Source of the DNA: a bacterium
Lineage (GTDB): Bacteria > SAR324 > NAC60-12
Length of the DNA stretch: 64,000 nt
Reading direction: 5' to 3'
Assembly (NCBI GenBank): GCA_965233585.1
Contig: CBDDTI010000295.1
Location: 73,421 to 137,420 of the forward strand
The position numbers were made by a program, and so were the translations under genes. Each line of letters begins with the position of its first letter. Position 1 is the stretch's first letter. Positions 4,411 through 56,400 of the stretch are shown here, in pieces. The notes under the pieces were generated by a model, which saw nothing but the letters and a program-made list of their open reading frames with translations, did no database searches and was not told where the DNA came from.

Positions 4411-6957
4411 TCAAATCAACCAATTTTCGCCAATTCCGATTTCTATTTTTAAGGGAACTTCTAAGAAGATGACATGTTCCATGTCTTGTTGAATCAAGGC
4501 ACAAAGCTCCTGTTGTTCTTCTTTTGGAACATCAAACACTAGCTCATCATGTACAGACAACACCATTTGGGATTGCATCTTTTTTTGTTGCAAATGGCGG
4601 TCAATGTTGACCATCGCCAGTTTGATGATTTCAGCAGCAGAGCCTTGAATGGGGGTGTTGATTGCCGCACCTTCAGCCGCACTTTTAGCAAGTCCTTCTC
4701 CTTGAATGGCAGGCAAATAACGTCTTCTTCCCATCAAGGTCTGAGCATAGTTTTCTTTGCGGGCAAAGTTTAAAAGCTCTTCTTGCAAAATGTGAATGCA
4801 AGCATATTTTTCAAAAAACTTAGCAATGAAGTCTTTTGCTTGGTCTTTGGAGGTATTGGAGACGTTTGAGAGTTTGTCAGCCCCCATGCGATAAATGAGA
4901 CCAAAGTTGACTTCTTTGGCTTTTGACCTCATCTGCCTTGTGACGCCCTCTAATGGAACATTGAAAATGGTTGAGGCTGTGATGGCATGAATGTCCTCAT
5001 CGTTACGAAATGCTTGCAAAAACGTTGGGTCTTTGGAAAAGTGAGCGGCAACTCTTAATTCAATTTGACTGTAATCTGCCTTGATTAAAAGATGGTCTTT
5101 GGAAGAAGGTATAAAAAATTGTCTGATCCTTCGCCCATGTTCTGTGCGGATTGGAATATTTTGCAAATTAGGGTGGTCAGAGGCTAAGCGTCCTGTGGCA
5201 GTGGCAGTTTGCTTGAATGAGGAATGAATCCGACCTGTCTGGCTGGCAAACTTTGGCAGTGGCAAGACGTAAGTGTTTTGAAGTTTAGACAACTCACGGT
5301 ATTTCAAGAGTAATTGAGGCAGTTCCAGTTGTTGCATTTTGGCAAGGGTTTCTTCATCAGTTGACATGCCATTGCCTGTTTTAATTTTTTTAGGCTTAAT
5401 TTGACACTTTTTGTGAAGTTCCAGCTTGTCATAAAGAATTTTCTGCAACTCAACAATAGAATTGATGTTAAAAATCTCTCCTGATGCTTGGTAGATTTTG
5501 GCTGTCAGTGTGTCAAGTTCTGTTGCAAGCTCTTTGGCATATTCTTGACAGGATTCTTGATTGAAACAAACCCCAACTTGCTCCATTTTTGACAGCACAC
5601 GGACAAGAGGAAACTCCAAAGTCTCATACAAATCCACTGCACCAATCACTTGGAAACGTTCTTTGAAAAAAGGCGCAAGTTGCCAAAGCTGTTGAATGTA
5701 TTGATGCCCAGCATGCTCCACTTTAGGGAGGTCATTTGTCTGTGAGGTGAGATGAGCTACCAGCTGCACGTCAAACAAGTCAACCTGTTGCCAGTCTATC
5801 TCAAAATGCTGTAAGCCACGATAAAGCTCTTTGGCATCTTTGACAATAACCTGACGAGAACCATCAAAGCATCGTCCAAAAAACGACACTAATTGCTCTT
5901 TGGAAAAATCCTTAAACCCAATGTCGCACACTTGATTTGATTGGTAGCAAACCGAAACACCTGACACCGCATCTGAATCAGTACAATAGTTGAGACTGAT
6001 TGCAAAATTTTTGACGACTTGTAGTAATTCATCAAGCTGTTTGAGAGTTTCAACAGCAATCACCTCTGTTTGTTCAGAAACAACAGGTTTGGTTTTTTTC
6101 AGTGAGAATTGTTTCAACAAAGAGGGGAACTCTAACTCCTCTAAAATTCCAATCAATTCGTCATTGCCTTCTAGGAGTGTTGGGTCAAACTGCATGGCGT
6201 CCCAGTCAAAATCAATAGGGACATCACGTCTGATGGTGGCTAATTTCTGTGAAAGCCAAGCATTGTCTTGGGAGCGGATTAAATTCTCTTGAACCCTTTT
6301 CTGTCGGATTGCACTGATGTTGTCATAAATACCTTGCATTGAACCATACTCTGCCAGCAGCTTTTTTGCAGTTTTTTCACCAATGCCTGCTACACCGGGA
6401 ATGTTATCGGAGCTATCACCTATCAAACCAAGTGCATCAGGAACGTATTGAGGGCTACAACCAAATTTTTCAAAAACTGCCTCTTGGTCTAGCAAATCAC
6501 CTGCTGAATTGAGAATGCGGGTAGTGTCAGAAACAAGTTGCAAGTAGTCTTTGTCATTGGTCAAGATGATGGTTTCCATTGTTTTTTGTTCTGCAAGGCT
6601 TGAAAGTGAGCCGATGATGTCATCAGCTTCCCAGCCGATTTGAGTCCAATAGGGAATGTCTAGGCTTTTTGCAAAACGTTTCAAGTATGGGAATTGGGCA
6701 ATCAAATCTTCAGGAGTCTGCTGACGTGTCGCCTTGTATTGCGGGAAGATTTCATGCCTAAAAGTAGGTTCTGGCAAATCTGATGCCAGTGCAAAGTAGT
6801 CTGGTTTTTCTTTTTTAAGTAGGGTTAAGATTTGTTTAAAAAATCCATGCAAGGCACTGACGTTCATGCCTTTAGAATTGATCAAAGGTCGGTGAATCAA
6901 GGCAAAATGATGACGATAGAGCAGTGCCATGCAATCTACTGCAAACAAACGTCTCAT
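4411..6957 (-). CDS. polA: DNA polymerase I
   Basis: 848 aa. The 5'-3' exonuclease N-terminus is present (GWEADDIIGSL). Family-A polymerase motifs are present (DYSQIELRVAAH, RSKAKEVNFGLIYRMG, SVHDELVF). Confidence 0.95.
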   Translation of the reverse strand: MRRLFAVDCMALLYRHHFALIHRPLINSKGMNVSALHGFFKQILTLLKKEKPDYFALASDLPEPTFRHEIFPQYKATRQQTPEDLIAQFPYLKRFAKSLDIPYWTQIGWEADDIIGSLSSLAEQKTMETIILTNDKDYLQLVSDTTRILNSAGDLLDQEAVFEKFGCSPQYVPDALGLIGDSSDNIPGVAGIGEKTAKKLLAEYGSMQGIYDNISAIRQKRVQENLIRSQDNAWLSQKLATIRRDVPIDFDWDAMQFDPTLLEGNDELIGILEELEFPSLLKQFSLKKTKPVVSEQTEVIAVETLKQLDELLQVVKNFAISLNYCTDSDAVSGVSVCYQSNQVCDIGFKDFSKEQLVSFFGRCFDGSRQVIVKDAKELYRGLQHFEIDWQQVDLFDVQLVAHLTSQTNDLPKVEHAGHQYIQQLWQLAPFFKERFQVIGAVDLYETLEFPLVRVLSKMEQVGVCFNQESCQEYAKELATELDTLTAKIYQASGEIFNINSIVELQKILYDKLELHKKCQIKPKKIKTGNGMSTDEETLAKMQQLELPQLLLKYRELSKLQNTYVLPLPKFASQTGRIHSSFKQTATATGRLASDHPNLQNIPIRTEHGRRIRQFFIPSSKDHLLIKADYSQIELRVAAHFSKDPTFLQAFRNDEDIHAITASTIFNVPLEGVTRQMRSKAKEVNFGLIYRMGADKLSNVSNTSKDQAKDFIAKFFEKYACIHILQEELLNFARKENYAQTLMGRRRYLPAIQGEGLAKSAAEGAAINTPIQGSAAEIIKLAMVNIDRHLQQKKMQSQMVLSVHDELVFDVPKEEQQELCALIQQDMEHVIFLEVPLKIEIGIGENWLI

Positions 6958-27278: not shown

Positions 27279-27308
27279 TTGACTCTTATTTCTTTAATCA
27301 GTTAGAAT
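27279..27308 (+). promoter_or_regulatory. sigma70-like promoter (TTGACT-N18-TAGAAT) pointing at the IS1 copy B insertion site and the 28131 gene
   Basis: Sequence cacTTGACTcttatttctttaatcagtTAGAATctc. It has the same architecture as the promoter at 1039-1068. The IS1 left end begins 34 nt downstream of the -10. Confidence 0.45.
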
Positions 27309-27341
27309 CTCTCCCTTCTAAACATAGTGTTTAGGTTTTTT

Positions 27342-28101
27342 GGCATTGTTAAGTAATAAGTGATAGCTGATTATTCCGTTTTGCCATGAACAAAAGAACA
27401 GAATATTGTAATGCTTTAAGAGACTTGCTGTAACATTTGGTTTTCCTTCTCATTCTTGCCAAGAAATGTCTCAAGAGAGAATTATACTCTTCTACCGTGT
27501 ATGTTTCTGCCTTGGAACATGTATGAATTTCTTTGGGAATGACTTGTTTGTAAGCCTTCCAGTGATCAGTCATCACCTGAAGAGGTTTTGTTTCCTTGAC
27601 CTTGTCCCATAAATGCCTACAGGCTTTTGAGTCTCTGTTTCCAAGCACACAATTGATAAATTGCTTCCCACATCTATCAACAGCAATCCAGAGCCAGCAG
27701 TAGTTTTTTTTGACTGGATGTAGGTGTGCATTTCATCAATTTCCATAATTTCAATGTCTGTGTCCTTTCTTAATGCCTTGAGCTGTTCGCCAAAACTACA
27801 GACCCAATTATAAACTGAAACATGAGAACAATTCAGCAAACGACCGATTGACCTGAAACCAAGACCCTCCAAATACAACTCTAATGCTCTTCTTTTGATC
27901 TGTGGTGAGATTTGACCACGATAGGACTTGGTATATTGATAGTTGCAGGCATTGCAACGCCTCCTCGGTTTACCATATAAAAAACCATTCTTAACCGTCT
28001 TCTCACTTTCACATCTAGGACACGACTTCATTGCTACACCATGACTATCAATTCAATTAAATGAACTTAATATCGCATATCACTTATAGTTTAACAATAC
28101 C
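27342..28101 (-). mobile_element. IS1-family insertion sequence, copy B (760 bp)
   Basis: Same terminal inverted repeats as copy A (27342-27365 and 28078-28101). I noticed about 8 substitutions relative to copy A by eye. Its own 8-bp direct repeat GGTTTTTT lies at 27334-27341 and 28102-28109. Confidence 0.9.
27349..28031 (-). CDS. IS1-family transposase (InsAB'-type, putative -1 frameshift at the A8 run 27704-27711)
   Basis: ORFs 27573..28031 and 27349..27648 are near-identical to those of copy A. The differences I saw are L3S, R->C, Y->C, C->W, I->V and G->E. Confidence 0.85.
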
Positions 28102-28130
28102 GGTTTTTTTAATCTGTAAGGAGAATTAAC

Positions 28131-29381
28131 ATGAAACAGAATTTTAGCGCAAAATTATCCGCAATCCGCAATCCGCAATCCGCAATCCGCAATCCGCAAT
28201 CCGCAATCCGCAATCCGCAATCCGCAATCCGCAATCCGCAATCCGCAATCCGCAATCCGCAATCCGCAATCCGCAATCTATATAGGCTAACCCCGCTTTT
28301 TCAAAAGTCAAGACAAAAATGGAAATTCTTTGCGTTTTCGTCAAAAAATTCTCTCACCTACTCAAATCTCACTTCTTCAAACTCTTTCTCATTCTTCTCA
28401 CGATTTTTGCGATCTTTGCCTGTGGTAAAAATGGCTTTGATGATCGGAATTAGCTGGATGGCTGTTGGTTGTACGCTCCCTTTTGTTGCTCCTGGATTTG
28501 ATCCAACGCTCTACCCAAACCCACCAACCTACCCCAACAATTCATTATCAGAGCGAGCAGTCAAAGTACCACTCGGTTCAGAAGCATTTAGAGAAGGTTT
28601 ATTCGGTGCAAAATGGACACGAGGCGTCGAAATATTATGGTTTGATACAGATACTCTTGCTATTGCTTATCTAACTACTGAAGAATCTGAAGAAAAGGGA
28701 CAGAATGCCTTTTACTTTTCAGTGCCTAAAAACGCATTTATTGAAGGAGATTCAACTCTTTTTGATGCAATGGATAATTTTCGTAATCTCACTGAATTGA
28801 GTTACAAAAATGTGGATAGCACTGCCTCTCGTGCCCTCACTTTTTTGAGTGTTGCTGCAGGAAATGACAACTATCAGCCATGTATTGAATCTGAAAGTTC
28901 TCCAATTAGCACTTTGGATGGAAAATATTCAATAACCCTGTTGCTGTCAGACTATACTGGTGATGATTGCGATAGACCAACACAGGATGGTGATGGTATA
29001 TTTGATTACCAAGATATATACATGAGATACAGAATAAAAGGAGACAATTCAAAAAAAGAACTTATATTTACGAAGAAGTTTGAAAGTATTAGTCATTATA
29101 ATAGAGGACGTGGCGCCCGGACTATGTATCTTACAGAAGATAAAAAATATTTGGTTACGTCAAGGGGCATTGTTAGTCTTGATTCTCTCAAAATGATTGA
29201 TTATGCACCTACTTATCCTGAGGCAGACGGACTGCAGACTCGGACTCCACCCGCAATGTATGGAGCTTTTATTAGCCCAACTTTAGATAAGGTTGCCCTT
29301 TTGTATTACGTAGAAGATGCTAATTCAAAGACGGAATACTACCTAGAAATCACTGATTTTATTTTACCTGAAACGGAGTAG
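28131..29381 (+). CDS. Hypothetical lipoprotein-like protein with an N-terminal extension encoded through a heptanucleotide repeat
   Basis: ATG at 28131 with a strong SD (AAGGAG, 8-nt spacing). The frame runs through (CCGCAAT)17, read as (SAIRNPQ)n, into an internal signal/lipobox-like segment MALMIGISWMAVGC (from 28431) and a mature domain of about 300 aa with no family I recognise. Confidence 0.6.
   Translation: MKQNFSAKLSAIRNPQSAIRNPQSAIRNPQSAIRNPQSAIRNPQSAIRNLYRLTPLFQKSRQKWKFFAFSSKNSLTYSNLTSSNSFSFFSRFLRSLPVVKMALMIGISWMAVGCTLPFVAPGFDPTLYPNPPTYPNNSLSERAVKVPLGSEAFREGLFGAKWTRGVEILWFDTDTLAIAYLTTEESEEKGQNAFYFSVPKNAFIEGDSTLFDAMDNFRNLTELSYKNVDSTASRALTFLSVAAGNDNYQPCIESESSPISTLDGKYSITLLLSDYTGDDCDRPTQDGDGIFDYQDIYMRYRIKGDNSKKELIFTKKFESISHYNRGRGARTMYLTEDKKYLVTSRGIVSLDSLKMIDYAPTYPEADGLQTRTPPAMYGAFISPTLDKVALLYYVEDANSKTEYYLEITDFILPETE
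28157..28278 (+). repeat. Perfect heptanucleotide microsatellite (CCGCAAT)x17
   Basis: Hand count gives 28159-28277 = 119 nt = 17 exact units, plus partial units at both ends. The tract has no stop codon in any of the six frames. Confidence 0.95.
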
Positions 29382-29385
29382 AACG

Positions 29386-30480
29386 ATGAAAAAGTTATCA
29401 CTCCAGCATTTTTCAAAAAGTAGAATGGGTTTTACACCCAGAGTCTGGACTCCTGCCCCTGTTTTCAAAGGGGGTGATGTCCTAGTCAGGAGGAGCAATT
29501 GGTATGTTGCTTTGGTCTTTCTTTTTGTCATCGGCTTTGTCATTGGATGTCTTTCTATTGCCACTCGTATTGACAATGCTGGTAAGGCAAGAGATGTAGA
29601 TCAGTTAGTTGAGTTTATTCAATCCGAAGAAGTTTCAATACCAGACAAAAGAAAAGCTATCAGGTGGTTAGGACGTTATTCGGGGAATGCTGCTGCAGTA
29701 CAGGTATTAGTCGCTTTGAATCCAAGAAATAGAGGCTTAACTTTTGAAGTGGTCAAGGCGTTGGGCAAGCATACAAACTCTGTTGATGCTTTTGAACGAC
29801 TTCAAAGTCATGCTCAAAAGCAAGACAATGCCGATGTCCGAGCTGAAGCTTTCATCCAAATCTCTCTAACAACAGCGGTAGAAAATGATCAGGTTATTGA
29901 AACCTTAAAAACGTCTCAAGAGGATTCAGAAGCAGCAGTCGTCATCACAGGAAGCAGGCTTTTAAGAGAGAGAAATGATTTTTCGGGAGGAAAGAAGGTT
30001 TATGAAATCTTACAAAAGACCAGTTACAGCCCTGTCAAAAAATTAGCTCTCAAAGAGTTACAACATCATAAAAGTAAAGACTATTTACCCTTAATATCTG
30101 AAGAGGTCAATTCCACTGATCCCAAAATCAGAAAATATGCAAGAGTTTATTTGAAAAACATAGGATTAAGTGGAGAAGAAATATCAAAACTGTCTTCAGA
30201 TAGAAGAGATTTACTGAATCAAATTGTGGCACTTGAGAAAACAGTAACTGATCTTGAGGCAAGAATGCGGTCAATGCAAGAAAATCAAAGTAGTCATACC
30301 AATTCTGGAACGGCTACAGAGAGTCAGCAATCTGGAACTAATCAACTTGCTAGTATTGCGACAGAATGTGCCAAGAAACTCGCTGCAGTAAAAGCTTGTG
30401 AAATGTTGACCTGGCCTGCTTCAACAGTTTGTACCAAAACAGCCGAAAGTCAATTCTCCCTCTGCCCAATCTCACCATAG
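29386..30480 (+). CDS. Hypothetical membrane-anchored protein with HEAT/ARM-like helical repeats and a coiled coil
   Basis: 364 aa. GGAG SD. Starts 4 nt after the 28131 gene's stop. One TM segment (WYVALVFLFVIGFVIGCLSIA), then alpha-helical repeats (AIRWLGRYSGNAAAVQVLVAL..) and a coiled coil (LLNQIVALEKTVTDLEARMRSMQ). Confidence 0.55.
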   Translation: MKKLSLQHFSKSRMGFTPRVWTPAPVFKGGDVLVRRSNWYVALVFLFVIGFVIGCLSIATRIDNAGKARDVDQLVEFIQSEEVSIPDKRKAIRWLGRYSGNAAAVQVLVALNPRNRGLTFEVVKALGKHTNSVDAFERLQSHAQKQDNADVRAEAFIQISLTTAVENDQVIETLKTSQEDSEAAVVITGSRLLRERNDFSGGKKVYEILQKTSYSPVKKLALKELQHHKSKDYLPLISEEVNSTDPKIRKYARVYLKNIGLSGEEISKLSSDRRDLLNQIVALEKTVTDLEARMRSMQENQSSHTNSGTATESQQSGTNQLASIATECAKKLAAVKACEMLTWPASTVCTKTAESQFSLCPISP

Positions 30481-30671: not shown

Positions 30672-31532
30672 TTAAAGGTTTTGGATTTGTTGTGGAGAGA
30701 GTCCAGTGATAGATTGAATCAAATCCATCTCCAATCCTTGAGCAAGCATCTTTTGAGCAATGTCAAGTTTCTCTTCTTGTCGTCCCTCTTCTCTTCCTTC
30801 TTCTCTTCCTTCTTGCTTACCTTTCTTCTCACCTAGCTCAATAGAGCTTTTTTGAATGGCAACAAACTCTTTTCTTTTGTGGTGGAGTTCTAACTCTTCA
30901 GATGTCATACCTGCTTCATTGACAATTTCTAAAGCCTTTTGGACAGAAGGATTGAAGGAATCAGGCACAAGATCAAACTCTTCAGCATGCTTGACAAAAT
31001 AAATCCACTGATCTTGGAGTTCCTGTAAGTCTTCAAAGTTTTTTTGAAACTTGGGAAGTTCAATAAAGACCAGTTCAATCTCCCCTGAATATTCAGTAAG
31101 CTGTTCTTTTTCCAATAACCTGAAACAGTTGATAAGTCTATCATTGTTGTCAAACATGACAAAATCCACCACACTGACAGCAATGACAGGCTTGAGCAAG
31201 TGATACTGACTTCCTGTAACCAACTGCATAGAATACTTTTTACAAGCATTGTAGAGGACTCGTTTCTCAAAGCCATCATGGTTGATGACTTGCATCTCAA
31301 TCATCACCTGCTCACCTGTGCTTAATGTGGCTTTGACATCTACATAGCTGTCTTTCATACCTTTGAGCAAAGGCGGATTGTAAGGGTCTTGAATCGTCAA
31401 ATCTTCAATCTTTTCATCATTTTGAAAAGTTAAAATAGAATTGAGGAAGCTGAGCAGAAGGTCTTGGTGCTTGGCATTACCAAAGACCATCTTGAAAGCA
31501 TAATCTGTTTTGACATCTAAAAAACGCATCAC
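30672..31532 (-). CDS. Rpn-family recombination-promoting nuclease / PD-(D/E)XK putative transposase, copy 1
   Basis: 286 aa. N-terminus MRFLDVKTDYAFKMVFGN...LLSFLN, and DSYVDVKA...IEMQV (PD-(D/E)XK core). The C-terminal helical tail (KLDIAQKMLAQGLEMDLIQSITGLS) is typical of YhgA/Rpn-like proteins. Confidence 0.8.
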   Translation of the reverse strand: MMRFLDVKTDYAFKMVFGNAKHQDLLLSFLNSILTFQNDEKIEDLTIQDPYNPPLLKGMKDSYVDVKATLSTGEQVMIEMQVINHDGFEKRVLYNACKKYSMQLVTGSQYHLLKPVIAVSVVDFVMFDNNDRLINCFRLLEKEQLTEYSGEIELVFIELPKFQKNFEDLQELQDQWIYFVKHAEEFDLVPDSFNPSVQKALEIVNEAGMTSEELELHHKRKEFVAIQKSSIELGEKKGKQEGREEGREEGRQEEKLDIAQKMLAQGLEMDLIQSITGLSPQQIQNL

Positions 31533-31560: not shown

Positions 31561-32427
31561 TTATTTAATAAGGTTTTGGATTTGTTGTTGAGAGAGTCCA
31601 GTGATAGATTGAATCAAATCCATCTCCAATCCTTGAGCAAGCATCTTTTGAGCAATGTCAAGTTTCTCTTCTTGTCGCCCTTCTTCTCTTCCCTCTTCTC
31701 TTCCTTCTTGCTTTCCTTTCTTCTCACCTAACTCAATAGAGCTTTTTTGAATGGCAACAAACTCTTTTCTTTTGTGATGGAGTTCTAACTCTTCAGCTGT
31801 CATACCTGCTTCATTGACAATTTCTAAAGCCTTTTGGACAGAAGGATTGAAGGAATCAGGCACAAGATCAAACTCTTCAGCATGCTTGACAAAATAAATC
31901 CACTGATCTTGGAGTTCCTGTAAGTCTTCAAAGTTTTTTTGAAACTTGGGAAGTTCAATAAAGACCAATTCAATCTCCCCTGAATATTCAGTAAGCTGTT
32001 CTTTTTCCAATAACCTGAAACAGTTGATGAGTTTGTCAGTGTTATCAAACATGACAAAATCCACCACACTGACAGCAATGACAGGCTTGAGCAAGTGATA
32101 CTGACTTCCTGTAACCAACTGCATAGAATACTTTTTACAAGCATTGTAGAGGACTCGTTTCTCAAAGCCATCATGGTTGATGACTTGCATCTCAATCATC
32201 ACCTGCTCACCTGTGCTTAATGTGGCTTTGACATCTACATAGCTGTCTTTCATACCTTTGAGCAAAGGCGGATTGTAAGGGTCTTGAATCGTCAAATCTT
32301 CAATCTTTTCATCATTTTGAAAAGTTAAAATAGAATTGAGGAAGCTGAGCAGAAGGTCTTGGTGCTTGGCATTACCAAAGACCATCTTGAAAGCATAATC
32401 TGTTTTGACATCTAAAAAACGCATCAC
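31561..32427 (-). CDS. Rpn-family recombination-promoting nuclease / PD-(D/E)XK putative transposase, copy 2
   Basis: 288 aa. It differs from copy 1 at only a handful of residues (NNDR/NTDK, S/A, C-terminal tail). The tandem unit of about 890 bp includes about 35 bp of 5' leader. Confidence 0.8.
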   Translation of the reverse strand: MMRFLDVKTDYAFKMVFGNAKHQDLLLSFLNSILTFQNDEKIEDLTIQDPYNPPLLKGMKDSYVDVKATLSTGEQVMIEMQVINHDGFEKRVLYNACKKYSMQLVTGSQYHLLKPVIAVSVVDFVMFDNTDKLINCFRLLEKEQLTEYSGEIELVFIELPKFQKNFEDLQELQDQWIYFVKHAEEFDLVPDSFNPSVQKALEIVNEAGMTAEELELHHKRKEFVAIQKSSIELGEKKGKQEGREEGREEGRQEEKLDIAQKMLAQGLEMDLIQSITGLSQQQIQNLIK

Positions 32428-45738: not shown

Positions 45739-47160
45739 TTACATGTTTGGCAGTAACATATTGATAATAGGAATGGACAGTTGATTGGCTTGAGCCGCTG
45801 CTGCACTAGAGGCATTGGTTAGAATCTGGTACCTTGTAATGTCAGACAAGGTTTTGACAATGTCTGCATCACGCACTGTAGACTCTGCTGCCAACAAATT
45901 CTCTGCTGTAATTCGCAAAACTGCCACATTACTTTCCAGAGAATTTTTTTGAGTCGCACCCAAATCCCCCCTCATTTTTGAAACTTCAGTGATGGCTTTG
46001 TCAATCAAACGTATCGCATCGGACGCATTTTCTACAGTCTCTACTTCAATGTCAGAGAGACTTGAAAATAGACTGTCATTTTGCACCCCTCTGCCCAATG
46101 AACTGGTAGAGACACTATTGAGAGCCAGCCCAACTCTTTGATCCACATTCTGCCCCACCTGAAACTGCAAGGAGTTTTGAGAGACACTGACAGTGCCATT
46201 GAACCCCAAAACTGGCTCACGCACAAAGACAGAAAGCCCATCAGTAAAGCGATTCCCTTCTGCACCTGTGAGAGTCCGACCTTTCCCAACTGCTGCCTCG
46301 CCATTAATTGTGCCTTGAATGTCTGACCCGTTGCGAATCTCTTCAGTCTGACCACCGATTAAGCCCAAAGTGTCTTCAGAGACAGTGATAGAAAAGCTAT
46401 TGTCTTGACCATATTTTTTATGGAAGATGAAGAGTGACACGCCATCATATTCCACCTCTAAATTCAGACCTGCCCGTTCTATTGAACTGGATAAGCGACT
46501 CACAAATAAATCAGGAGCCTCATCTTCTCGTCCAACTAAACGGATAGATTTACCCCCTTCATTGAGAGTCATCACTAATCCCTCAGGATCATCAGCAAAT
46601 TGCCCAGAGATTTCAGAACGTGTGGCTGTTTCTATCACGTCTATTTCATAGCCCTCCACAGGTGAAGAACGTGTTTTGTCTGTTGCTCCCAAGAAGTCCA
46701 CAAACTGATTAGAAGCCACGCCTGAAACACCATTGCTGCCATCAAGCAAGAATTTATTCCCAAAACGTGTGGTGTTGGCAATTCTTTCAATGGTATCGAG
46801 CGCATTTCGGAGTTGATTTTGCAGAGAGGCTCTTGCAATTTCGTCATTTGAGGCTTCATTGGCAGCTGCCAATGAAAGTTGCCTTGCTTCAATGAGTAAA
46901 TTATTGACCTCAGACAAAGCACCTTCTGCTGTTTGCACAACAGAAATAGAGATTTCAGAGTTTTTAATGGCTTGTTCCACACTTGCAATTTGCGCTCTCA
47001 AATTCTCTGAAATGATCAAGCCCGCAGGGTCATCTCCACCATGATTGATACGTTGCCCTGAAGACAATTTTTCTAATGATTTGGAGAGTTCACTTTGAGT
47101 CCAAGACAAATGTCTTAAAGCATTCAAAGATTGTGTATTGTTTCGGATATTGATTGCCAT
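45739..47160 (-). CDS. fliC: Flagellin (473 aa)
   Basis: N-terminal LEKLSSGQRINHGGDDPAGL and the C-terminal D1/D0 helices are present. The start lies 12 nt after the upstream flagellin's stop, with a GGAGG SD. Confidence 0.92.
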   Translation of the reverse strand: MAINIRNNTQSLNALRHLSWTQSELSKSLEKLSSGQRINHGGDDPAGLIISENLRAQIASVEQAIKNSEISISVVQTAEGALSEVNNLLIEARQLSLAAANEASNDEIARASLQNQLRNALDTIERIANTTRFGNKFLLDGSNGVSGVASNQFVDFLGATDKTRSSPVEGYEIDVIETATRSEISGQFADDPEGLVMTLNEGGKSIRLVGREDEAPDLFVSRLSSSIERAGLNLEVEYDGVSLFIFHKKYGQDNSFSITVSEDTLGLIGGQTEEIRNGSDIQGTINGEAAVGKGRTLTGAEGNRFTDGLSVFVREPVLGFNGTVSVSQNSLQFQVGQNVDQRVGLALNSVSTSSLGRGVQNDSLFSSLSDIEVETVENASDAIRLIDKAITEVSKMRGDLGATQKNSLESNVAVLRITAENLLAAESTVRDADIVKTLSDITRYQILTNASSAAAAQANQLSIPIINMLLPNM

Positions 47161-47172
47161 GATGCCTCCAAA

Positions 47173-48660
47173 TTATTGAGATGCTAAAAGCCCCAAAACG
47201 TTTTGGGGCATGGCATTGGCTTGTGCAAGCTGTGCAGTTGCCGCTTGTGTCAAAATTTGACTTCTTGTGAAGTTTGTCAACTCTTGAGCCATGTCTGCAT
47301 CACGCAAGACGGATTCTGCGGCAGTCAGATTCTCTGCTGCCACCCTGAGAGAGTAGATGTTACTTTCTAAGGTGTTGCGTTGAAATGCTCCAAGTAGCCC
47401 CCGATTTGCAGAGATTTCCTCAATCGCTTTATCTACAAGCCTGATGGAATCTTGGGCACCTTGACCCGTACGGACATCTACATCAGCAAGAGAAGAAAAC
47501 CCGCTGTTGTTGTTAATGTCTCTTGCAATTTGAGTAGAGCTTGTGTCAAGCATACTGACAGCAACCGTCTGTCCTTCGTTTGCACCTACCTGGAATTGGA
47601 GTGCATTTTGTTTGACACGCACCAGTCCGACCACCGAATTTTCAGGTGCAGAACCATTGACCCGCAATCTGAGACCATCAGTAGATCTGTTGCCTCTCTT
47701 GCCAATCATCACATCGCCATCGCCAATGGCAATTTCTCCATTGATGGTGCCGCGAATATCTGTTCCGTAGCTGACAACTTCCTCATTCTCAAGAGTCGTC
47801 CCTTGTTCTCCAAGGAAAATACCTGCTTCTGTGCTAGAGGCACTGAAACCTTTTTTGCTTCCATACTGATTATGAACAACGCTAAAAGCCCCTGAGGCTG
47901 CCCCCCTTGGCACGTCATGCTCAATACTGATGTCAAGCCCTGCCCTTTCAATCGCAGCTGCCAGACCTTCTAGTGCTGTGCTGACAGAGTCTTGCTCAGT
48001 GGCTTTGTATTTGACAACTTTGCCCTCTGAACGGACAGAAAGCACGACACCATTTTCAATGGCATCTTGGGACAGAGTTCCATCTAAAGTGGCTCGTGTT
48101 GCATTTTCTGAGACAAAGACTTCATACCCTTGATCATCTCCGACCTTAGTTGCCGCAGATGCTTTGAGAAACTGCACGACTTTTTTCCCATCAGCAGACA
48201 AGACTAAATCTTGGGTGCTTCCAGTGGTTGCACGACTTCCATCAAGCAAGCGACGTTGTCCAAACTGCGTGTTTTGTGCAATTCGGTCAATCGCAGCAAG
48301 TGCATTTTCAATTTCTGCTTGGTCTGCCGCAAGTTGTGTCTCGTCATTGATTCCCTCGTTGGCAGCATGCACAGCTCGTTGCCGAATGTCAATTAAAAGA
48401 CGATTGACTTCTGTCAATGCACCTTCTGCTGTTTGTACCAATGACACAGCAGCTTCGTTGTTATCCAAAGCCTGCGTCAAGCCCCCAATTTGGGCACGCA
48501 TGTGTTCTGAAATGACTAGCGTCGCAGGTCCTTCTGCTGCTGAATTGACTTTGATCCCTGAAGATAAGCGTTGAAGTGTTCTTCCTAAATCTTGGTCGTT
48601 TTTTAACATCAAACGGTGTGCATTCATTGCATTGATGTTATGGTTAATTCTAACTCCCAT
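47173..48660 (-). CDS. fliC: Flagellin (495 aa)
   Basis: LQRLSSGIKVNSAAEGPA...; C-terminus ..TRSQILTQAATAQLAQAN. Confidence 0.92.
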   Translation of the reverse strand: MGVRINHNINAMNAHRLMLKNDQDLGRTLQRLSSGIKVNSAAEGPATLVISEHMRAQIGGLTQALDNNEAAVSLVQTAEGALTEVNRLLIDIRQRAVHAANEGINDETQLAADQAEIENALAAIDRIAQNTQFGQRRLLDGSRATTGSTQDLVLSADGKKVVQFLKASAATKVGDDQGYEVFVSENATRATLDGTLSQDAIENGVVLSVRSEGKVVKYKATEQDSVSTALEGLAAAIERAGLDISIEHDVPRGAASGAFSVVHNQYGSKKGFSASSTEAGIFLGEQGTTLENEEVVSYGTDIRGTINGEIAIGDGDVMIGKRGNRSTDGLRLRVNGSAPENSVVGLVRVKQNALQFQVGANEGQTVAVSMLDTSSTQIARDINNNSGFSSLADVDVRTGQGAQDSIRLVDKAIEEISANRGLLGAFQRNTLESNIYSLRVAAENLTAAESVLRDADMAQELTNFTRSQILTQAATAQLAQANAMPQNVLGLLASQ

Positions 48661-48695
48661 GATAACCTCGTTATAGTTTAAAGATTAAAAAATGA

Positions 48696-48730
48696 TTCCT
48701 CCATAGAACTACATTGATTCCCTCCATAGG
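48696..48730 (-). promoter_or_regulatory. Two small hairpins with AUGGA loops in the leader of flagellin 47173..48660
   Basis: RNA sense: CCUAUGGAGGG (48730->48720) and UUCUAUGGAGGAA (48708->48696). Each can close an AUGGA loop using G-U pairs. A GAGG SD follows. Confidence 0.35.
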
Positions 48731-48795
48731 TTTAAAAAGAAGCCTATCAAACATAGACTTCTTCAAAAATTGAAAGTCTTTTTCAAGACAAAGAT

Positions 48796-50241
48796 TTATC
48801 CAAGTAAGGACAACACCATCTGGTCTTTGGTGTTTGCCTGTGCCAGCATAGCGGTTGCCGATTGCATCATAATCTGATTCTTGGTGAAGGTTGTCATCTC
48901 TTCTGCCATGTCTGTATCACGAATCACAGACTCTGCAGAGATTAGGTTTTCACTAGCCACACGCAGATTGTTGAGATTACTTTGCAAGGTGTTTTTTTGG
49001 AATGCCCCAAGCTTTCCACGTTCTATGGTCGTTTCTTCTATCGCTTGGTCTATGATACTTAATGAATCCTGTGCAGAACGAAAGGACGTCACATCTACTT
49101 CTTCCAAAGATTTGATGTCACTGACGTTCTCCAGTCCTTTCCCCAATGCAGAAGGCGCCATGTTTCTTAACGACACAGCGATCGTTTGACCTTCATTTGC
49201 ACCAATTTGAAATTGCAATGAATTTTGAAACACTGACACAGTCCCTGCAATTTGGGCTTGTCCTTCTGAAATGGCTTCTCCGTTATAACGAACGGCAAGC
49301 CCTGCAATGTTGGGTGCATTGTCTTTGCCTGTTAAAATCTGCCCACGACCGACGGCATCTTCCCCGTTGATTGTGCCTTTGACGTCTGCTCCTCTCTCTG
49401 CTTCCTGTGTGACATTACCTATGTCAGACAACACACCCCCCGTCTCTGATGACACCGAAAAAGAGTTCTCACTCCCGTATTCTTGATGCGTCAATGTGAC
49501 ACTTCCATTGTCATTCTTAGAGACCTCTATCTTCAGTCCTGCGGCTGCAATTTTAGATTTCAGTTCATTGATGTTGCTGTCCAGATTCTCTCCTGCAATG
49601 GTTGTGAAAGAGACAGTTTTACCCCCCTCACTGACAGTGAGAGTTTCCCCATCATCTATCAGCTGTTGAGTCAAAGCCACACTACCTGTGACAGAAGTCT
49701 TAGATGCCACTTGCGAAATCTCAACATCATAACCCTCTATGGGTGATGTGTTGGTGTTGGGTCCTGCAGAGACAAACTGCAGACCTTCTCCATTTGCCAC
49801 TCCGTTTGCACCACGACTGCCATTGAGCAGTTGCTTTTTGCCAAATTGGGTGTTTTGGGCAATTCTTTCAATGGTAGCAAGGGCATTGTCTATCTCTGCT
49901 TGGTCTGCCTCAAGCATCTTTTCATCGTTCACACCTGTATTGCTGGCATGAATAGCAAGCTGACGAACATCTACAAGCAGCTTATTCACTTCTTGCAATG
50001 CTCCTTCTGCGGTTTGCACCATAGAAATCCCACTTTCAGAGTTGTCTATCGCTTGTTCAAGTCCTGCAATCTGCGCTCGCATTTGCTCTGAAATCACAAG
50101 CGATGCAGGACCATCTGCGGCACGATTGATCTTCTCCCCAGATGAAAGTTTTTCTAGGGTTTTGGCTGAATTAAACGCAGCACTCCCTAATTGACGCTGC
50201 GTGTTGATGGCACTAATATTGTGTTTGATTCTAAACATCAT
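48796..50241 (-). CDS. fliC: Flagellin, C-type paralogue 1 (481 aa)
   Basis: LEKLSSGEKINRAADGPASL...; the N- and C-terminal thirds are near-identical to 51061..52506 and 53320..54762. Confidence 0.95.
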   Translation of the reverse strand: MMFRIKHNISAINTQRQLGSAAFNSAKTLEKLSSGEKINRAADGPASLVISEQMRAQIAGLEQAIDNSESGISMVQTAEGALQEVNKLLVDVRQLAIHASNTGVNDEKMLEADQAEIDNALATIERIAQNTQFGKKQLLNGSRGANGVANGEGLQFVSAGPNTNTSPIEGYDVEISQVASKTSVTGSVALTQQLIDDGETLTVSEGGKTVSFTTIAGENLDSNINELKSKIAAAGLKIEVSKNDNGSVTLTHQEYGSENSFSVSSETGGVLSDIGNVTQEAERGADVKGTINGEDAVGRGQILTGKDNAPNIAGLAVRYNGEAISEGQAQIAGTVSVFQNSLQFQIGANEGQTIAVSLRNMAPSALGKGLENVSDIKSLEEVDVTSFRSAQDSLSIIDQAIEETTIERGKLGAFQKNTLQSNLNNLRVASENLISAESVIRDTDMAEEMTTFTKNQIMMQSATAMLAQANTKDQMVLSLLG

Positions 50242-50262
50242 AACCTCCTTGGTTTGATTGAA

Positions 50263-50278
50263 ATGCTATCCATAGCAT
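50263..50278 (-). promoter_or_regulatory. 5'-leader hairpin presenting GGA in the loop (AUGCUAUGGAUAGCAU), candidate CsrA-type binding site
   Basis: A perfect inverted repeat 12 nt upstream of the AAGGAGG SD. Homologous hairpins with compensatory stem changes occur at 52527-52542 and 54787-54802. Confidence 0.45.
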
Positions 50279-50304
50279 AAAAAAACCCCTGATACATTCA
50301 AAGG
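50279..50304 (-). terminator. Hairpin plus U-run at the end of repeat array 1 (terminator/attenuator-like)
   Basis: RNA sense: CCUUUGA-AUGUA-UCAGGGG followed by UUUUUUU. The 7-bp stem has two G-U pairs and lies immediately 5' of the leader hairpin. Confidence 0.3.
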
Positions 50305-50330
50305 CAACTTAAAAATTGTAAATTGTGAAT

Positions 50331-51011
50331 GGTTAAATCTATTTATCCGTTGTCATTAGACACTCCTCCCTGAATCTCTCATCAAAAAACTAGAGACTCT
50401 TAAAAAATGCTCCTTCCTCTTCTCCAATCCTTTCCAGAGACAAAGAAGAAACTCAAAAAAAACAAAAATCCAAAAAACTCCTCACGTTCTGATGACTTTT
50501 GTCAAATCCGTTGATCCATTGTCAAAGACACGTCTCCCTGAATCTCTCATCAAAAAACTAGAGACTCCTAGAAAATGCTCCTTCCTCTTCTGCAATCCTT
50601 TCCAGATTGAAAGAAGAAGAAGCTCAACAAAACAAAAATCCAAAAAACTCCTCACGTTCTGACGACTTTTGTCAAATCCATTTATCCGTTGTCATTAGAC
50701 ACTCCTCCCTGAATCTCTCATCAAAAAACTAGAGACTCCTAAAAAATGCTCATTCCTCTTCTCCAATCCTTTCCAGAGACAAAGAAGAAACTCAAAAAAA
50801 ACAAAAATCCCAAAAAACTCCTCACGTTCTGACGACTTTTTGTCAAATCCGTTGATCCATTGTCAAAGACACGTCTCCCTGAATCTCTTAATCAAAACAT
50901 CACGGACTCCTAAAAACTGCGGTTCGCTCTCCAATCCTTGCCAGAAACAAAGAAGAAGAAACTCAACAAAACAAAAATTCCAAAAAACTCCTCACGTTCT
51001 GATGAATTTTT
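50331..51011. repeat. Tandem array 1: four units of about 170 bp between flagellin paralogues
   Basis: Unit starts (gtcaaatcc-type motif) at about 50332, 50501, 50671 and 50842, with a degenerate fifth start at about 51013. Two unit subtypes alternate (ccgttgatccattgtcaaagacacg vs ccatttatccgttgtcattagacac). Confidence 0.9.
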
Positions 51012-51060
51012 TGTCAGCATCAAGCAAAGACTTCCTGCCTGATGCCAATTCAAAAATCCA

Positions 51061-52506
51061 TCAGCTTAATAAGGAAAGCACCATCTGGTCTTTGGCGTTT
51101 GCCTGTGCCAGCATGGCGGTTGCTGATTGCATCATAATCTGATTCTTGGTGAAGGCTGTCATCTCTTCTGCCATGTCTGTATCGCGGATCACAGACTCTG
51201 CTGAAACCAAGTTTTCATTTGCCACACGCAAGTTGTTGAGATTACTTTGCAAGGTATTCTTTTGGAATGCCCCGAGCTTTCCACGTTCTATGGTCGTTTC
51301 TTCTATCGCTTGGTCTATGATATTCAAGGAATCCTGTGCAGAACGAAAGGACGTCACATCTACTTCTTCCAAAGATTTGATGTCACTGACGTTCTCCAGT
51401 CCTTTCCCCAATGCAGAAGGCGCCATGTTTCTTAAAGACACCGCAATCGTTTGACCTTCATTTGCTCCGATTTGAAATTGCAATGAGTTCTGAAACACTG
51501 ACACAGTCCCTGCAACTTGAGATTGCCCCTCTGGAATAGCTGCTCCATTGTAACGAACAGCAAGCCCTGCAATGTTGGGTGCATTGTCTTTGCCTGTTAA
51601 AACTTGCCCACGACCGACGGCATCTTCCCCGTTGATTGTTCCTTTGACGTCTGCTCCTCTCTCGGCTTCCTGCGTGACATTACCGACGGTGGACAAAACA
51701 CCATTTGTCTCTGATGCCACTGAAAAAGAATGCTCGCTTCCGTATTCTTGATGCGTCAATGTGACACTTCCATTGTCATTCTTAGAGACGTCTATCTTCA
51801 GTCCTGCAGCTGCAATTTTAGACTTCAGTTCATTGATGTTACTGTCCAGATTCTCTCCTGCAATGGTTGTGAAGGAGACAGTTTTACCACCTTCACTGAC
51901 AGTGAGAGTTTCCCCATCATCTATCAGCTGTTGAGTCAAAGCCACACTACCTGTGATGGACGTTTTAGTGGCAACTTGAGAGATGTCAACATCATAGCCT
52001 TCCACAGGCGATGTATTGGTGTTGGGTCCTGCAGAGACAAACTGCAGACCTTCTCCATTGGCAACTCCGTTTGCACCACGACTGCCGTTGAGCAGTAGCT
52101 TCGTTCCAAACTGAGTGTTTTGGGCAATTCTTTCAATGGTAGCAAGGGCATTGTCTATCTCTGCTTGGTCTGCCTCCAGCATTTTTTCATCGTTCACACC
52201 TGTATTGCTGGCATGAATGGCAAGCTGACGAACATCTACAAGCAACTTATTCACTTCTTGCAATGCTCCTTCTGCCGTTTGCACCATAGAAATCCCACTT
52301 TCCGAGTTGTCTATCGCTTGCTCAAGTCCCGCAATCTGCGCCCGCATTTGCTCTGAAATCACAAGCGATGCAGGACCATCTGCGGCACGATTGATCTTCT
52401 CCCCAGATGAAAGTTTTTCTAGGGTTTTGGCTGAATTAAATGCAGCGATCCCTAATTGACGCTGCGTGTTGATGGCACTAATATTGTGTTTGATTCTAAA
52501 CATCAT
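51061..52506 (-). CDS. fliC: Flagellin, C-type paralogue 2 (481 aa)
   Basis: Same conserved termini as paralogue 1. The differences cluster in the central variable domain. Confidence 0.95.
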   Translation of the reverse strand: MMFRIKHNISAINTQRQLGIAAFNSAKTLEKLSSGEKINRAADGPASLVISEQMRAQIAGLEQAIDNSESGISMVQTAEGALQEVNKLLVDVRQLAIHASNTGVNDEKMLEADQAEIDNALATIERIAQNTQFGTKLLLNGSRGANGVANGEGLQFVSAGPNTNTSPVEGYDVDISQVATKTSITGSVALTQQLIDDGETLTVSEGGKTVSFTTIAGENLDSNINELKSKIAAAGLKIDVSKNDNGSVTLTHQEYGSEHSFSVASETNGVLSTVGNVTQEAERGADVKGTINGEDAVGRGQVLTGKDNAPNIAGLAVRYNGAAIPEGQSQVAGTVSVFQNSLQFQIGANEGQTIAVSLRNMAPSALGKGLENVSDIKSLEEVDVTSFRSAQDSLNIIDQAIEETTIERGKLGAFQKNTLQSNLNNLRVANENLVSAESVIRDTDMAEEMTAFTKNQIMMQSATAMLAQANAKDQMVLSLLS

Positions 52507-52526
52507 AACCTCCTTGGTTGATTAAA

Positions 52527-52542
52527 ATGCGTTCCATCGCAT
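52527..52542 (-). promoter_or_regulatory. 5'-leader hairpin with GGA loop (AUGCGAUGGAACGCAU)
   Basis: Stem AUGCG/CGCAU, loop AUGGAA, 12 nt upstream of the AAGGAGG SD. Confidence 0.45.
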
Positions 52543-52567
52543 AAAAAGCCCCCGATACATTCAAAGG
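52543..52567 (-). terminator. Hairpin plus U-run at the end of repeat array 2 (terminator/attenuator-like)
   Basis: RNA sense: CCUUUGA-AUGUA-UCGGGGG then CUUUUU. This is the homologue of 50279-50304, with one substitution that keeps pairing as G-U. Confidence 0.3.
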
Positions 52568-52588
52568 CACTTAAAAAAATTGTGAATT

Positions 52589-53262
52589 GTCAAATCCATT
52601 TATCCGTTGTCAAAAGACACTTCTCCCTGAATCTCTCATCAAAACATCAGAGACTCCTAAAAACTACAGTTCGCTCTCCAATCCTTTCCAGAGACAAAGA
52701 AAAAGAAGCTCAAAAACAAAAATCCTAAAAAGCTCTTTGCGTTCTTATGACTTTTGTCAAATCCATTTATCCGTTGTCAAAAGACACTTCTCCCTGAATC
52801 TCTCATCAAAACATCAGAGACTCTTAAAGCTGGAGACTCCTAAAAAATGCTCCTCCCCTTTCCAGTCCTATACAGATTGAAATAAGAAGAAGAAACTCAA
52901 AAAAACCTTGCGTTCTTATGACTTTTGTCAAATCCATTTGACCGTTGTCAAAAGACACTTCTCCCTGAATCTCTCATCAAAACATCAGAGACTCTTGAGA
53001 CTACTCTTAAAAAATGCTCCTCCTCCTCTCCAATCCTTTCCAGAGACAAAGAAAAAGAAGCTCAAAAAAACCTTGCGTTCTTACGACTTTTGTCAAATCT
53101 ATTTATCCGTTGTCAAAAGACACTTCTCCCTGAATCTCTCATCAAAACATCACAGACTCTTAAAGCTGGAGACTCCTAAAAAATGCTCCTCCCTCCTCTC
53201 CAATCCTTTCCAGAGACAAAGAAAAAGAAGCTCAAAAACAAAAATCCCGAAAAGTTGATTGC
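52589..53262. repeat. Tandem array 2: four units of about 165-171 bp between flagellin paralogues
   Basis: Unit starts at 52589, 52756, 52927 and 53092. The units are homologous to array 1 but carry unit-specific indels. Confidence 0.9.
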
Positions 53263-53319
53263 GTTTGATTTTTTCAGGATCAAACGACAACCTTCCGTCT
53301 GATGCAAATTTAAAATCTA

Positions 53320-54762
53320 TTAACTCAATAAGGAAAGCACCATCTGGTCTTTGGCGTTTGCCTGTGCCAGCATCGCAGTTGCAGATTGCATCATAATCTG
53401 ATTTTTGGTGAAGGCTGTCATCTCTTCTGCCATGTCTGTATCACGAATCACAGACTCTGCTGAAGTTAAGTTTTCACTAGAAACCCTAAGGTTGTTCAGG
53501 TTGCTTTGTAATGTGTTTTTCTGGAATGCCCCAAGTTTCCCTCGTTCCATAGTCGTTTCTTCTATCGCTTGGTCTATGATATTCAAGGAATCCTGTGCAG
53601 ACCGAAAGGACGTCACATCTACCTCTTCTAGGGATTTGATGTCACTGACGTTCTCTATTCCTTTTCCCAGTGCAGAAGGCGCCATGTTTCTTAAAGACAC
53701 GGCGATTGTTTGACCTTCATTTGCACCAATTTGGAATTGCAATGAGTTCTGAAACACTGACACAGTCCCTGCATTTTTGGTCTGTCCTTCTGGAATGGCA
53801 GCTCCATTGTAACGAACAGCAAGCCCTGCGATGTTGGGTGCATTGTCTTTGCCTGTTAAAATCTGCCCACGACCGACGGCATCTTCTCCGTTGATTGTGC
53901 CTTTGACGTCTGCACCCCGTTCTGCTTCTTCTGTCACATTACCTACGGTGGACAACACACCTGCTGTCTCTGATGCCACTGAAAAAGAATGCTCGCTTCC
54001 GTATTCTTGATGCGTCAGTGTAATCGCACCAAGGTCTGTTCTGGAGACATCTATCTTCAGACCTGCGGCGGCAATTTTAGACTTCAGCTCATTGATGTTG
54101 CTGTCCAGATTCTCTCCTTTGAGAGTGGTGAACGAAACGGTTTTGCCCCCTTCGCTGACAGTGAGAGTTTCCCCATCATCTATCAGTTGTTGAGTCAAAG
54201 CCACACTGCCTGTGGTGGTCGTTTTAGTGGAAACTTGAGAGATGTCCACATCATAGCCTTCCACAGGCGATGAGTTCGTTGTTGGTCCTGCAGAGACAAA
54301 TTGTAAGCCCTCTCCATTCGCCACGCCGTTTGCACCACGACTGCCATTGAGCAGTAGCTTTGTTCCAAACTGGGTGTTTTGGGCAATTCTTTCAATGGTG
54401 GCAAGTGCGTTGTCTATCTCTGCTTGGTCTGCCTCAAGCATCTTTTCATCGTTCACACCTGCGTTGCTGGCATGAATCGCTAACTGGCGAACATCTACAA
54501 GTAATCTGTTGACTTCTTGCAAGGCGCCTTCTGCTGTTTGCACCATGGAAATCCCACTTTCAGAGTTGTCTATCGCTTGCTCAAGTCCTGCAATCTGCGC
54601 TCGCATTTGCTCTGAAATCACAAGCGATGCAGGACCATCTGCGGCACGATTGATCTTCTCCCCAGATGAAAGTTTTTCTAGGGTTTTAGCTGAGTCAAAT
54701 GCTGCATTCCCTAATTGACGTTGTGTATTGATTGCACTGATGTTGTGTTTAATTCTAAACAT
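53320..54762 (-). CDS. fliC: Flagellin, C-type paralogue 3 (480 aa)
   Basis: Same family, with conserved termini. Confidence 0.95.
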   Translation of the reverse strand: MFRIKHNISAINTQRQLGNAAFDSAKTLEKLSSGEKINRAADGPASLVISEQMRAQIAGLEQAIDNSESGISMVQTAEGALQEVNRLLVDVRQLAIHASNAGVNDEKMLEADQAEIDNALATIERIAQNTQFGTKLLLNGSRGANGVANGEGLQFVSAGPTTNSSPVEGYDVDISQVSTKTTTTGSVALTQQLIDDGETLTVSEGGKTVSFTTLKGENLDSNINELKSKIAAAGLKIDVSRTDLGAITLTHQEYGSEHSFSVASETAGVLSTVGNVTEEAERGADVKGTINGEDAVGRGQILTGKDNAPNIAGLAVRYNGAAIPEGQTKNAGTVSVFQNSLQFQIGANEGQTIAVSLRNMAPSALGKGIENVSDIKSLEEVDVTSFRSAQDSLNIIDQAIEETTMERGKLGAFQKNTLQSNLNNLRVSSENLTSAESVIRDTDMAEEMTAFTKNQIMMQSATAMLAQANAKDQMVLSLLS

Positions 54763-56161: not shown

Positions 56162-56400
56162 AGCGAACGCAAAAAGCCCTGAATACTCTTAAAATTGAGT
56201 ACTCACGGCATTCTTTCATCTCCTTTCTTCTTTCTAATTTTTAATTTTTAGCAAACGCAAAAAGCCCTGAATACTCTTAAAATTGAGTACTCACGGCATT
56301 CTTTAACCTTCTTTCTAATTTTTAATTTTTAGCAAACGCAAAAAGCCCTGAATACTCTTAAAATTGAGTACTCACGGCATTCTTTCATCTTCTTTTCTCA
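56162..56400 (-). terminator. Three tandem copies (81-88 bp) of an intrinsic-terminator module downstream of fliS
   Basis: Each unit reads, in RNA sense, GCCGUGAGUACUC-AAUUUUAA-GAGUAUUCAGGGC followed by UUUUUG. That is a 13-bp stem with one mismatch and one G-U. Unit starts on the plus strand are at 56162, 56250 and 56331. Confidence 0.65.

Follow-up and report, generated by a model that had tools for sequence, protein, structure and literature searches.

A perfect CCGCAAT heptanucleotide tract in a candidate translated 5′ extension of a lipoprotein gene from a SAR324-like bacterium

A heptanucleotide tract between a strong start codon and a lipoprotein signal peptide

We analysed a 64 kb window (64,000 nt; positions 73,421 to 137,420 of contig CBDDTI010000295.1) from an uncultured SAR324-like bacterium, in which a perfect run of CCGCAAT units lies inside the 5′ end of an open reading frame (ORF) encoding a predicted envelope lipoprotein. 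Our tentative preference, in what is close to a balanced call, is to regard this tract as a hypermutable microsatellite in a translated 5′ extension of the lipoprotein gene, where it would act as a slipped-strand frameshift switch. The locus would then plausibly join the microsatellite contingency loci, a class already known, and switching of the lipoprotein by the repeat is proposed here from sequence. The features on which this reading depends are listed below in window coordinates.

28118–28133, plus strand: Shine–Dalgarno (SD) sequence AAGGAG (28118–28123), 7 nt spacer and start codon ATG 28131; ranked by anti-SD pairing energy.
28157–28278, plus strand: perfect heptanucleotide microsatellite of 17 CCGCAAT units, encoding (AIRNPQS)n in the ORF frame; Tandem Repeats Finder and direct read.
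28279–28406, plus strand: pyrimidine-rich, G-poor linker, open only in the ORF frame, with no coding signature and encoding a basic peptide without Asp or Glu; Markov score and shuffles.
28283–28290, plus strand: out-of-frame stops TAG 28283–28285 and TAA 28288–28290, used unless the unit number is 14, 17 or 20; simulation.
28407–28472, plus strand: family-typical N-terminus, with candidate SD-less starts TTG 28407, TTG 28416, GTG 28422 and ATG 28431, then a signal peptide and lipobox ending ...MAVGC (Cys codon 28470–28472); alignment and SD energies.
28473–29381, plus strand: mature part of the lipoprotein, beta-rich, with the motif F-x2-P-x-F-D-P...NPP-x-YPNN after the Cys; coding score, alignment and structure model.

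Tandem Repeats Finder described the tract as period 7 with 17.4 copies, 100 % matches and zero indels, and a direct read placed 17 full units at 28159–28277 with a partial unit at either end, in agreement with the 17 perfect units counted in a first-pass annotation made from the sequence alone. Perfect copies without decay are as expected of ongoing slippage. That annotation had also called for a search for other CCGCAAT tracts. Run within the 64 kb window, the search found 16 overlapping matches to the double unit (14-mer) within the tract and, outside it, one match with two mismatches, where shuffles expect 0.26.

The six-frame ORF list contained a 416 aa ORF (28131–29381) that passes in frame through the tract, and the tract itself was free of stops in all six frames. 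As the unit length of 7 nt is not a multiple of three, gain or loss of one unit led to premature termination in simulation: across unit numbers from 12 to 22, the stop at 29379–29381 was reached from ATG 28131 only with 14, 17 or 20 units, and every other count ended at the TAG or the TAA just past the tract. The register in this assembly is ON. These results bear out what had been predicted of the reading frame, namely in-frame passage from ATG 28131 to the stop at 29381, near-immediate termination at these two stops after a unit change, and a tract without a stop in any frame.

The start codon of this ORF sits 26 nt before the tract and had been singled out for the best SD sequence in its neighbourhood, a claim that held up well. 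Its pairing with the anti-SD sequence of the 16S 3′ tail was −9.2 kcal/mol, within the top 1.3 % of the window's 2303 ATGs, and this energy would place it fifth among the window's 35 ORF starts. The pattern AAGGAG-N5-9-ATG occurred 11 times in 128 kb (both strands), with four of the 11, including ATG 28131, located at listed long-ORF starts. Start candidates across 28319–28431 scored far more poorly, at only 0.3 to −2.8 kcal/mol, a range that also covers the four candidate internal starts at 28407–28431; the start of the next gene (29386) reached −6.1 kcal/mol.

Under the favoured explanation, ribosomes would load at the strong SD sequence and ATG 28131 and translate through the repeat. Tracts of 14, 17 or 20 units would keep them in the lipoprotein frame, yielding a pre-protein whose first 113 residues, AIRNPQS heptads included, would be cleaved off together with the signal peptide at the lipobox Cys. 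At other unit numbers they would halt 5–10 nt past the tract; the lipoprotein frame would then depend on the weak SD-less internal starts at 28407–28431, and output would drop. The first-pass annotation had offered, as an alternative, that the tract gates translational coupling to an internal start at 28431, but this appears weak because the out-of-frame stops fall 120–150 nt upstream of that codon.

The product belongs to a rare lipoprotein family

An exhaustive HMMER search with the product returned five distant homologues (P0003–P0007) of 280–327 aa with E-values from 9e-7 to 7e-4. A word-indexed protein search with the mature lipoprotein returned the window's own protein only, and no Pfam or NCBIfam model matched it. 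All five relatives open with a short signal peptide ending in a lipobox Cys at position 13–25. This Cys, which corresponds to Cys114 of the window ORF (codon 28470–28472), is invariant in the family alignment, as are F118, P121, F123 and P132, and the internal lipobox suspected from the sequence, MALMIGISWMAVGC, is upheld by that invariance. Also common to the family are the motif F-x2-P-x-F-D-P...NPP-x-YPNN just after the Cys, more generally ending in NPP-x-Y/F, and the C-terminal motif LDKIALLY...IEITDY, or more generally LDK(I/L)A(L/I)LY...IE(I)TDY. By these sequence features the product belongs to a rare family of ~300 aa lipoproteins and is an envelope lipoprotein, surface exposure being a separate matter.

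A single-sequence AlphaFold model was useless (predicted local distance difference test score, pLDDT, 38). The model built from a six-sequence alignment was beta-rich (pLDDT 64; predicted template modelling score, pTM, 0.68). Its Foldseek matches, to beta-propellers (TM about 0.2, root-mean-square deviation about 12 Å), were treated as uninformative.

A repeat upstream of the gene does not appear to be a trait of the family. One homologue locus (L121) carries an 11 nt tandem repeat, ATCTGCGTCTC, in 4.7 copies at 4706–4756, ~245 nt upstream of the lipoprotein gene P0003, whilst no upstream repeats were seen at homologue loci L124, L125 and L127; the feature is thus present at only one of the four homologue loci with readable upstream sequence. 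At L121, P0003 is followed by a 318 aa ORF, a caspase/FGE-sulfatase protein and a sigma-70/FHA protein.

An alternative-frame ORF of 44 aa (28319–28453, plus strand) overlaps the start of the lipoprotein and reads MEILCVFVKKFSHLLKSHFFKLFLILLTIFAIFAC followed by GKNG, resembling a lipoprotein signal peptide with a lipobox. This resemblance is probably a by-product of T-rich sequence. Initiation of the lipoprotein through this ORF was rejected because the spacing from its Cys to F-x2-P-x-F-D-P misfits the family, whereas the Cys of the main frame fits exactly.

An IS1-family element lies directly upstream

The first-pass annotation missed an insertion sequence that ends 30 nt before ATG 28131, between that codon and the best promoter-like site.

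27342–28101, minus strand: IS1-family insertion sequence of 760 bp with 24 nt terminal inverted repeats and frameshifted InsA/InsB ORFs (27573–28031 and 27349–27648); Pfam DDE_Tnp_IS1 and NCBIfam transpos_IS1.
27279–27308, plus strand: best sigma-70-like match, TTGACT-18-TAGAAT, 10 of 12; promoter scan.

Elements of the IS1 family are ~760–770 bp long, with terminal inverted repeats, a target duplication of 8–9 bp and two genes in different frames, InsA (zinc finger/helix-turn-helix) and InsB (DDE). The element at 27342–28101 has every one of these hallmarks, including an intact 8 bp target duplication, GGTTTTTT, on either side (27334–27341 and 28102–28109). A second IS1 copy at 1080–1839 is 99.1 % identical, and the transposase is on the minus strand in both copies.

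Removing IS1 on paper brings the promoter-like site at 27279–27308 to about 50 nt upstream of the SD sequence, a step that would restore an ordinary promoter–SD–ATG layout. The only other promoter-like site upstream of the internal starts is a weak one at 28126–28155, and the promoter scan found none between the tract and the internal starts. On the minus strand, a weak promoter-like site at 28275–28304 (TTGAAA-18-TAGATT, 9 of 12) has a −10 hexamer that overlaps the last repeat unit, and would drive antisense transcription across the tract toward IS1.

Comparison with known repeat-controlled genes

Small-genome pathogens provide many well-documented microsatellite contingency loci, environmental bacteria few. 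In translational contingency loci the repeat lies in the 5′ or signal-peptide coding region, as in Neisseria opa (CTCTT), Helicobacter pylori oipA (CT) and the Haemophilus influenzae lic1/hgp genes (tetranucleotides). The window locus resembles these in having a long run of perfect copies, with a unit length indivisible by three, just after an SD-backed start, and in off-frames that stop at once, an envelope product and repeat-encoded residues that would go with the signal peptide. It differs in that the unit is 7 nt and the repeat sits ~50 codons ahead of the hydrophobic core instead of within or beside it, in a pre-sequence of about 113 aa absent from every relative found, and in its host, which is an uncultured, apparently free-living SAR324-like bacterium and not a host-adapted pathogen. 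Two traits of the locus are unusual: the position of the heptamer far upstream of the signal peptide and the uncultured environmental host.

Heptanucleotides also tune expression of H. influenzae hmw1A/hmw2A, where 13–38 copies of (ATCTTTC)n lie 69–106 bp upstream (PMC2651432). The hmw repeat is transcribed in the 5′ untranslated region (5′-UTR) and pairs with a G-rich arm as a hairpin cut by RNase III (PMC12721329), and expression falls gradually as the repeat lengthens (PMC2651432; PMC12721329). The window tract is similar in unit length, in copy number (17 versus 13–38) and in lying roughly 70–150 nt upstream of the family start of a surface protein. In detail, its geometry is similar to that of an hmw-type leader, with more than 10 heptamer units and a tract end 129–153 nt before the starts at 28407–28431. 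The likeness does not extend to the RNA: the window leader is unusually unstructured, and an SD-backed ATG reads through its tract. Folding of the leader (28102–28470) gave a minimum free energy of −51.4 kcal/mol, where shuffled sequences averaged −69.4 kcal/mol (z=+3.8); the fold was weaker than all 100 shuffles, and the tract was unpaired in the centroid structure, so that no hmw-type repeat hairpin was found. Composition and folding together also ruled out a G-quadruplex or hairpin role for the tract.

Tandem heptamers on the 5′ side of genes occur in non-pathogens as well. TAACTGA arrays in Beggiatoaceae and cyanobacteria are found a few nt before start codons (PMC4679880), and GGGNATC arrays in Xanthomonas and Nostoc form G-quadruplexes (PMC4692102). 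These systems, and the cyanobacterial STRR sequences, comprise many short arrays (2–6 units) of one unit per genome, whereas the window has a single 17-unit array in 64 kb, without G-runs and downstream of the SD sequence and ATG. The one double unit with two mismatches outside the tract likewise gave no indication of a dispersed heptamer family within the window. Membership of the Beggiatoaceae TAACTGA or cyanobacterial repeats was rejected because the arrangement differs and RpoB places the host near SAR324/Lambdaproteobacteria (60–64 % identity to named relatives; nearest match 79 %, on a metagenome contig).

The CCGCAAT unit in other genomes

An exact scan for four CCGCAAT units across a species-representative genome collection identified at least 120 loci (L001–L120) with 130 runs; the counts that follow are among the matches listed. 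Most came from metagenome-assembled genomes of Acidobacteriota, Planctomycetota, Verrucomicrobiota, Chloroflexota and Gemmatimonadota, with a median GC content of 0.59. Four full units made up 115 of the 130 runs and nearly all had 4–6, with more than 10 in just two, placing the window tract at the extreme of the distribution of unit number. The only other long array seen in full, a perfect 16-unit run in Stagnimonas aquatica (L104, 1218–1329; NZ_RJVO01000003.1), apparently lies in the ~155 nt that separate a WrbA-like gene from a divergent one, although a long minus-strand ORF is also readable through it.

An inverted (ATTGCGG)n arm was present within 120 nt on the 5′ side of 38 runs (29 %) and on the 3′ side of one, which suggests from the sequences that many CCGCAAT runs elsewhere are strongly oriented, heptamer-based hairpin elements. 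Arrays of other heptamers often adjoin the CCGCAAT arrays. The window tract shares an identical unit with the short arrays of these other phyla (examples at L021, L042, L056, L061, L084, L112 and L117), which occur in GC-rich genomes; it differs from them in having no inverted (ATTGCGG)n arm beside it and three to four times as many units. Among the papers searchable in full text, none contained the repeat string in any rotation. In the literature, heptamers are given as the commonest long simple repeats in many bacteria, mostly non-coding (Mrazek 2007 via PMC4679880; PMC4692102), a view with which the long array in the window agrees.

Is the N-terminal extension translated?

Whether the tract can act as a frameshift switch turns on translation of the ~100 residues that precede the family-typical N-terminus. 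From the tract to the signal peptide, 152 nt are open in the ORF frame, a property matched by 6 % of composition-matched shuffles, and the combination of SD sequence, register and open linker is hard to obtain by chance (roughly 0.01–0.03×1/3×0.06). The extension contains 17 Lys/Arg and zero Asp/Glu, a composition compatible with a long positively charged n-region.

Other evidence points the opposite way. The first 100 aa of the ORF have no counterpart in the five relatives, whose N-termini align to residues about 93–101, and a lipoprotein signal peptide ~100 aa from the N-terminus is atypical. A 3-periodic Markov model, with the long ORFs of the window as its training set, gave 28131–28430 a non-coding score in the ORF frame (−5 to −11 bits per 96 nt), whilst 28431–29381 scored +2.5 in the correct frame, compared with a housekeeping mean of +7.4. 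The missing acidic residues follow from the G-poor composition. About half of the window's ORF starts have a weak SD sequence or none, so that SD-less initiation is normal here and a start at 28407–28431 is credible. IS1 now splits the best promoter-like site from the SD sequence, and its insertion may consequently have silenced or rewired the locus. Of these points, two stand as the principal cautions: the relatives start after the repeat, and IS1 parts the locus from its probable promoter. A frameshift switch also presupposes use of ATG 28131, continued transcription of the locus after the IS1 insertion, and export and processing of a long pre-protein. Lastly, variation in tract length is the defining property of a contingency locus, and here we infer it: no second copy of the locus for a comparison of lengths was found in the collections searched (protein searches and a scan of metagenome contigs). 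The right flank of the tract had no exact match among those contigs, and an exact-sequence look-up of the 416 aa protein gave no contig.

Much of this evidence would suit a microsatellite in the 5′ leader, with the true start at 28407–28431, the 416 aa ORF over-extended and the tract 129–153 nt upstream of the start, in an untranslated leader or short upstream ORF; tract length, if it had an effect, would then tune expression in a graded way. We consider this a possible though rather unlikely alternative. It accounts for homologue N-termini that align around an invariant lipobox Cys, the absence of coding signal before about 28440 and the commonness of SD-less starts in the window, and it has precedent in the similarly placed heptamers of the hmw 5′-UTR (13–38 copies, 69–106 bp upstream; PMC2651432; PMC12721329) and perhaps in the L104 array, which seems intergenic, though a minus-strand ORF also reads through it. 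Against these points, it needs three coincidences, namely a top-1.3 % SD/ATG just 26 nt before the tract, the correct register (1 in 3) and a 50-codon open linker (6 %). The leader RNA is moreover less structured than all 100 shuffles (z=+3.8), making the hairpin and RNase III mechanism of hmw inapplicable, and there is no promoter-like site between the tract and the internal starts.

The tract might instead be a neutral slippage microsatellite in a decaying accessory locus, in which the gene has already been cut from its promoter by IS1 and the in-frame ORF is incidental. The literature portrait of heptamers as common and mostly non-coding (PMC4679880; PMC4692102), the occurrence of CCGCAAT runs at no fewer than 120 loci across many phyla and an IS1 copy with intact target duplication 30 nt upstream are in keeping with this, as are weak coding scores and a lack of close homologues for both the lipoprotein gene and the HEAT-repeat gene that follows it, which suggest a dispensable islet. 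We nonetheless judge it unlikely, given that 17 perfect units are extreme when 115 of the 130 listed runs elsewhere have four, that the array occupies precisely the interval from a strong start to a signal peptide, both off-frames being closed, and that the lipoprotein ORF runs uninterrupted for 316 codons and scores positively as coding. Misassembly of the tract's length or existence, which would render any statement about frame meaningless, appears very improbable: short reads make the length of a perfect repeat difficult to establish, and several runs of CCGCAAT elsewhere lie at contig ends (L037, L045 and L073), but this tract spans only 122 bp within unique sequence of a 256 kb contig, and CCGCAAT arrays recur in numerous assemblies made independently, one of them an isolate genome (L104).

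We return to the frameshift switch as the favoured explanation, since the co-occurrence of SD sequence, register and linker is improbable by chance and the missing homology and coding signal are also as expected of a young, low-complexity, lineage-specific pre-sequence. A slipped-strand switch had been the central proposal of the first-pass annotation. Its geometry stands, with a perfect tract, an SD-backed ATG 26 nt upstream, off-frame stops and an envelope lipoprotein; it is weakened by relatives that start after the repeat, an extension that scores as non-coding and a credible SD-less internal start.

If the tract varies and gates the lipoprotein, a bet-hedging device of the kind seen in pathogens would also operate in a deep-branching uncultured lineage, in a design that combines a heptamer unit with a disposable pre-sequence of unusual length. 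A more specific and doubtful proposal is that the heptamer encodes a variable-length, positively charged, disposable pre-sequence ~100 residues before the signal peptide, with unit number toggling between an SD-driven long pre-lipoprotein and weak SD-less initiation, as a form of phase variation outside host-adapted pathogens, presumably directed against phage or grazers. Were the tract invariant or untranslated, it would be an ordinary microsatellite beside an insertion sequence. As deposited, the 416 aa gene model is probably wrong about the mature protein, and stop-free repeats such as this one will lead gene callers to extend ORFs too far.

Genomic neighbourhood and other repeats in the window

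The lipoprotein locus is part of a small accessory islet, in which IS1 precedes it and genes for Rpn-type nucleases follow. The gene that follows it had been described as a co-oriented membrane protein, which is consistent with its strand, its position 5 nt after the lipoprotein stop and the N-terminal hydrophobic segment found in its product.

29386–30480, plus strand: downstream gene, encoding an N-terminal hydrophobic segment and HEAT repeats, 5 nt past the lipoprotein stop; ORF list and Pfam.

A word-indexed protein search with this HEAT-repeat protein returned the window's own protein only, and neither it nor the lipoprotein has a close homologue. Beyond it, two tandem, near-identical PD-(D/E)XK (Rpn-type) nuclease/transposase genes (30672–31532 and 31561–32427, minus strand) both carry a 12 nt repeat, CTTCTTCTCTTC on the plus strand, coding for EEGR repeats. 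Neither Rfam nor tRNA scans of the 64 kb window gave a match.

Longer repeats were seen elsewhere in the window. A 285 bp tandem repeat at 3145–3664 (1.8 copies, 87 % identity) lies in a 706 aa ORF (2098–4218, minus strand) with a weak carbohydrate-binding-like match only, and an 81 nt repeat is present at 56162–56395. The regions 45739–54762 and 60776–62563 (minus strand) contain an array of no fewer than five or six flagellin genes together with a 1093 aa FliD, with tandem repeats of 165–340 bp in the gaps upstream of successive flagellin paralogues (50335–51010 and 52737–53238).

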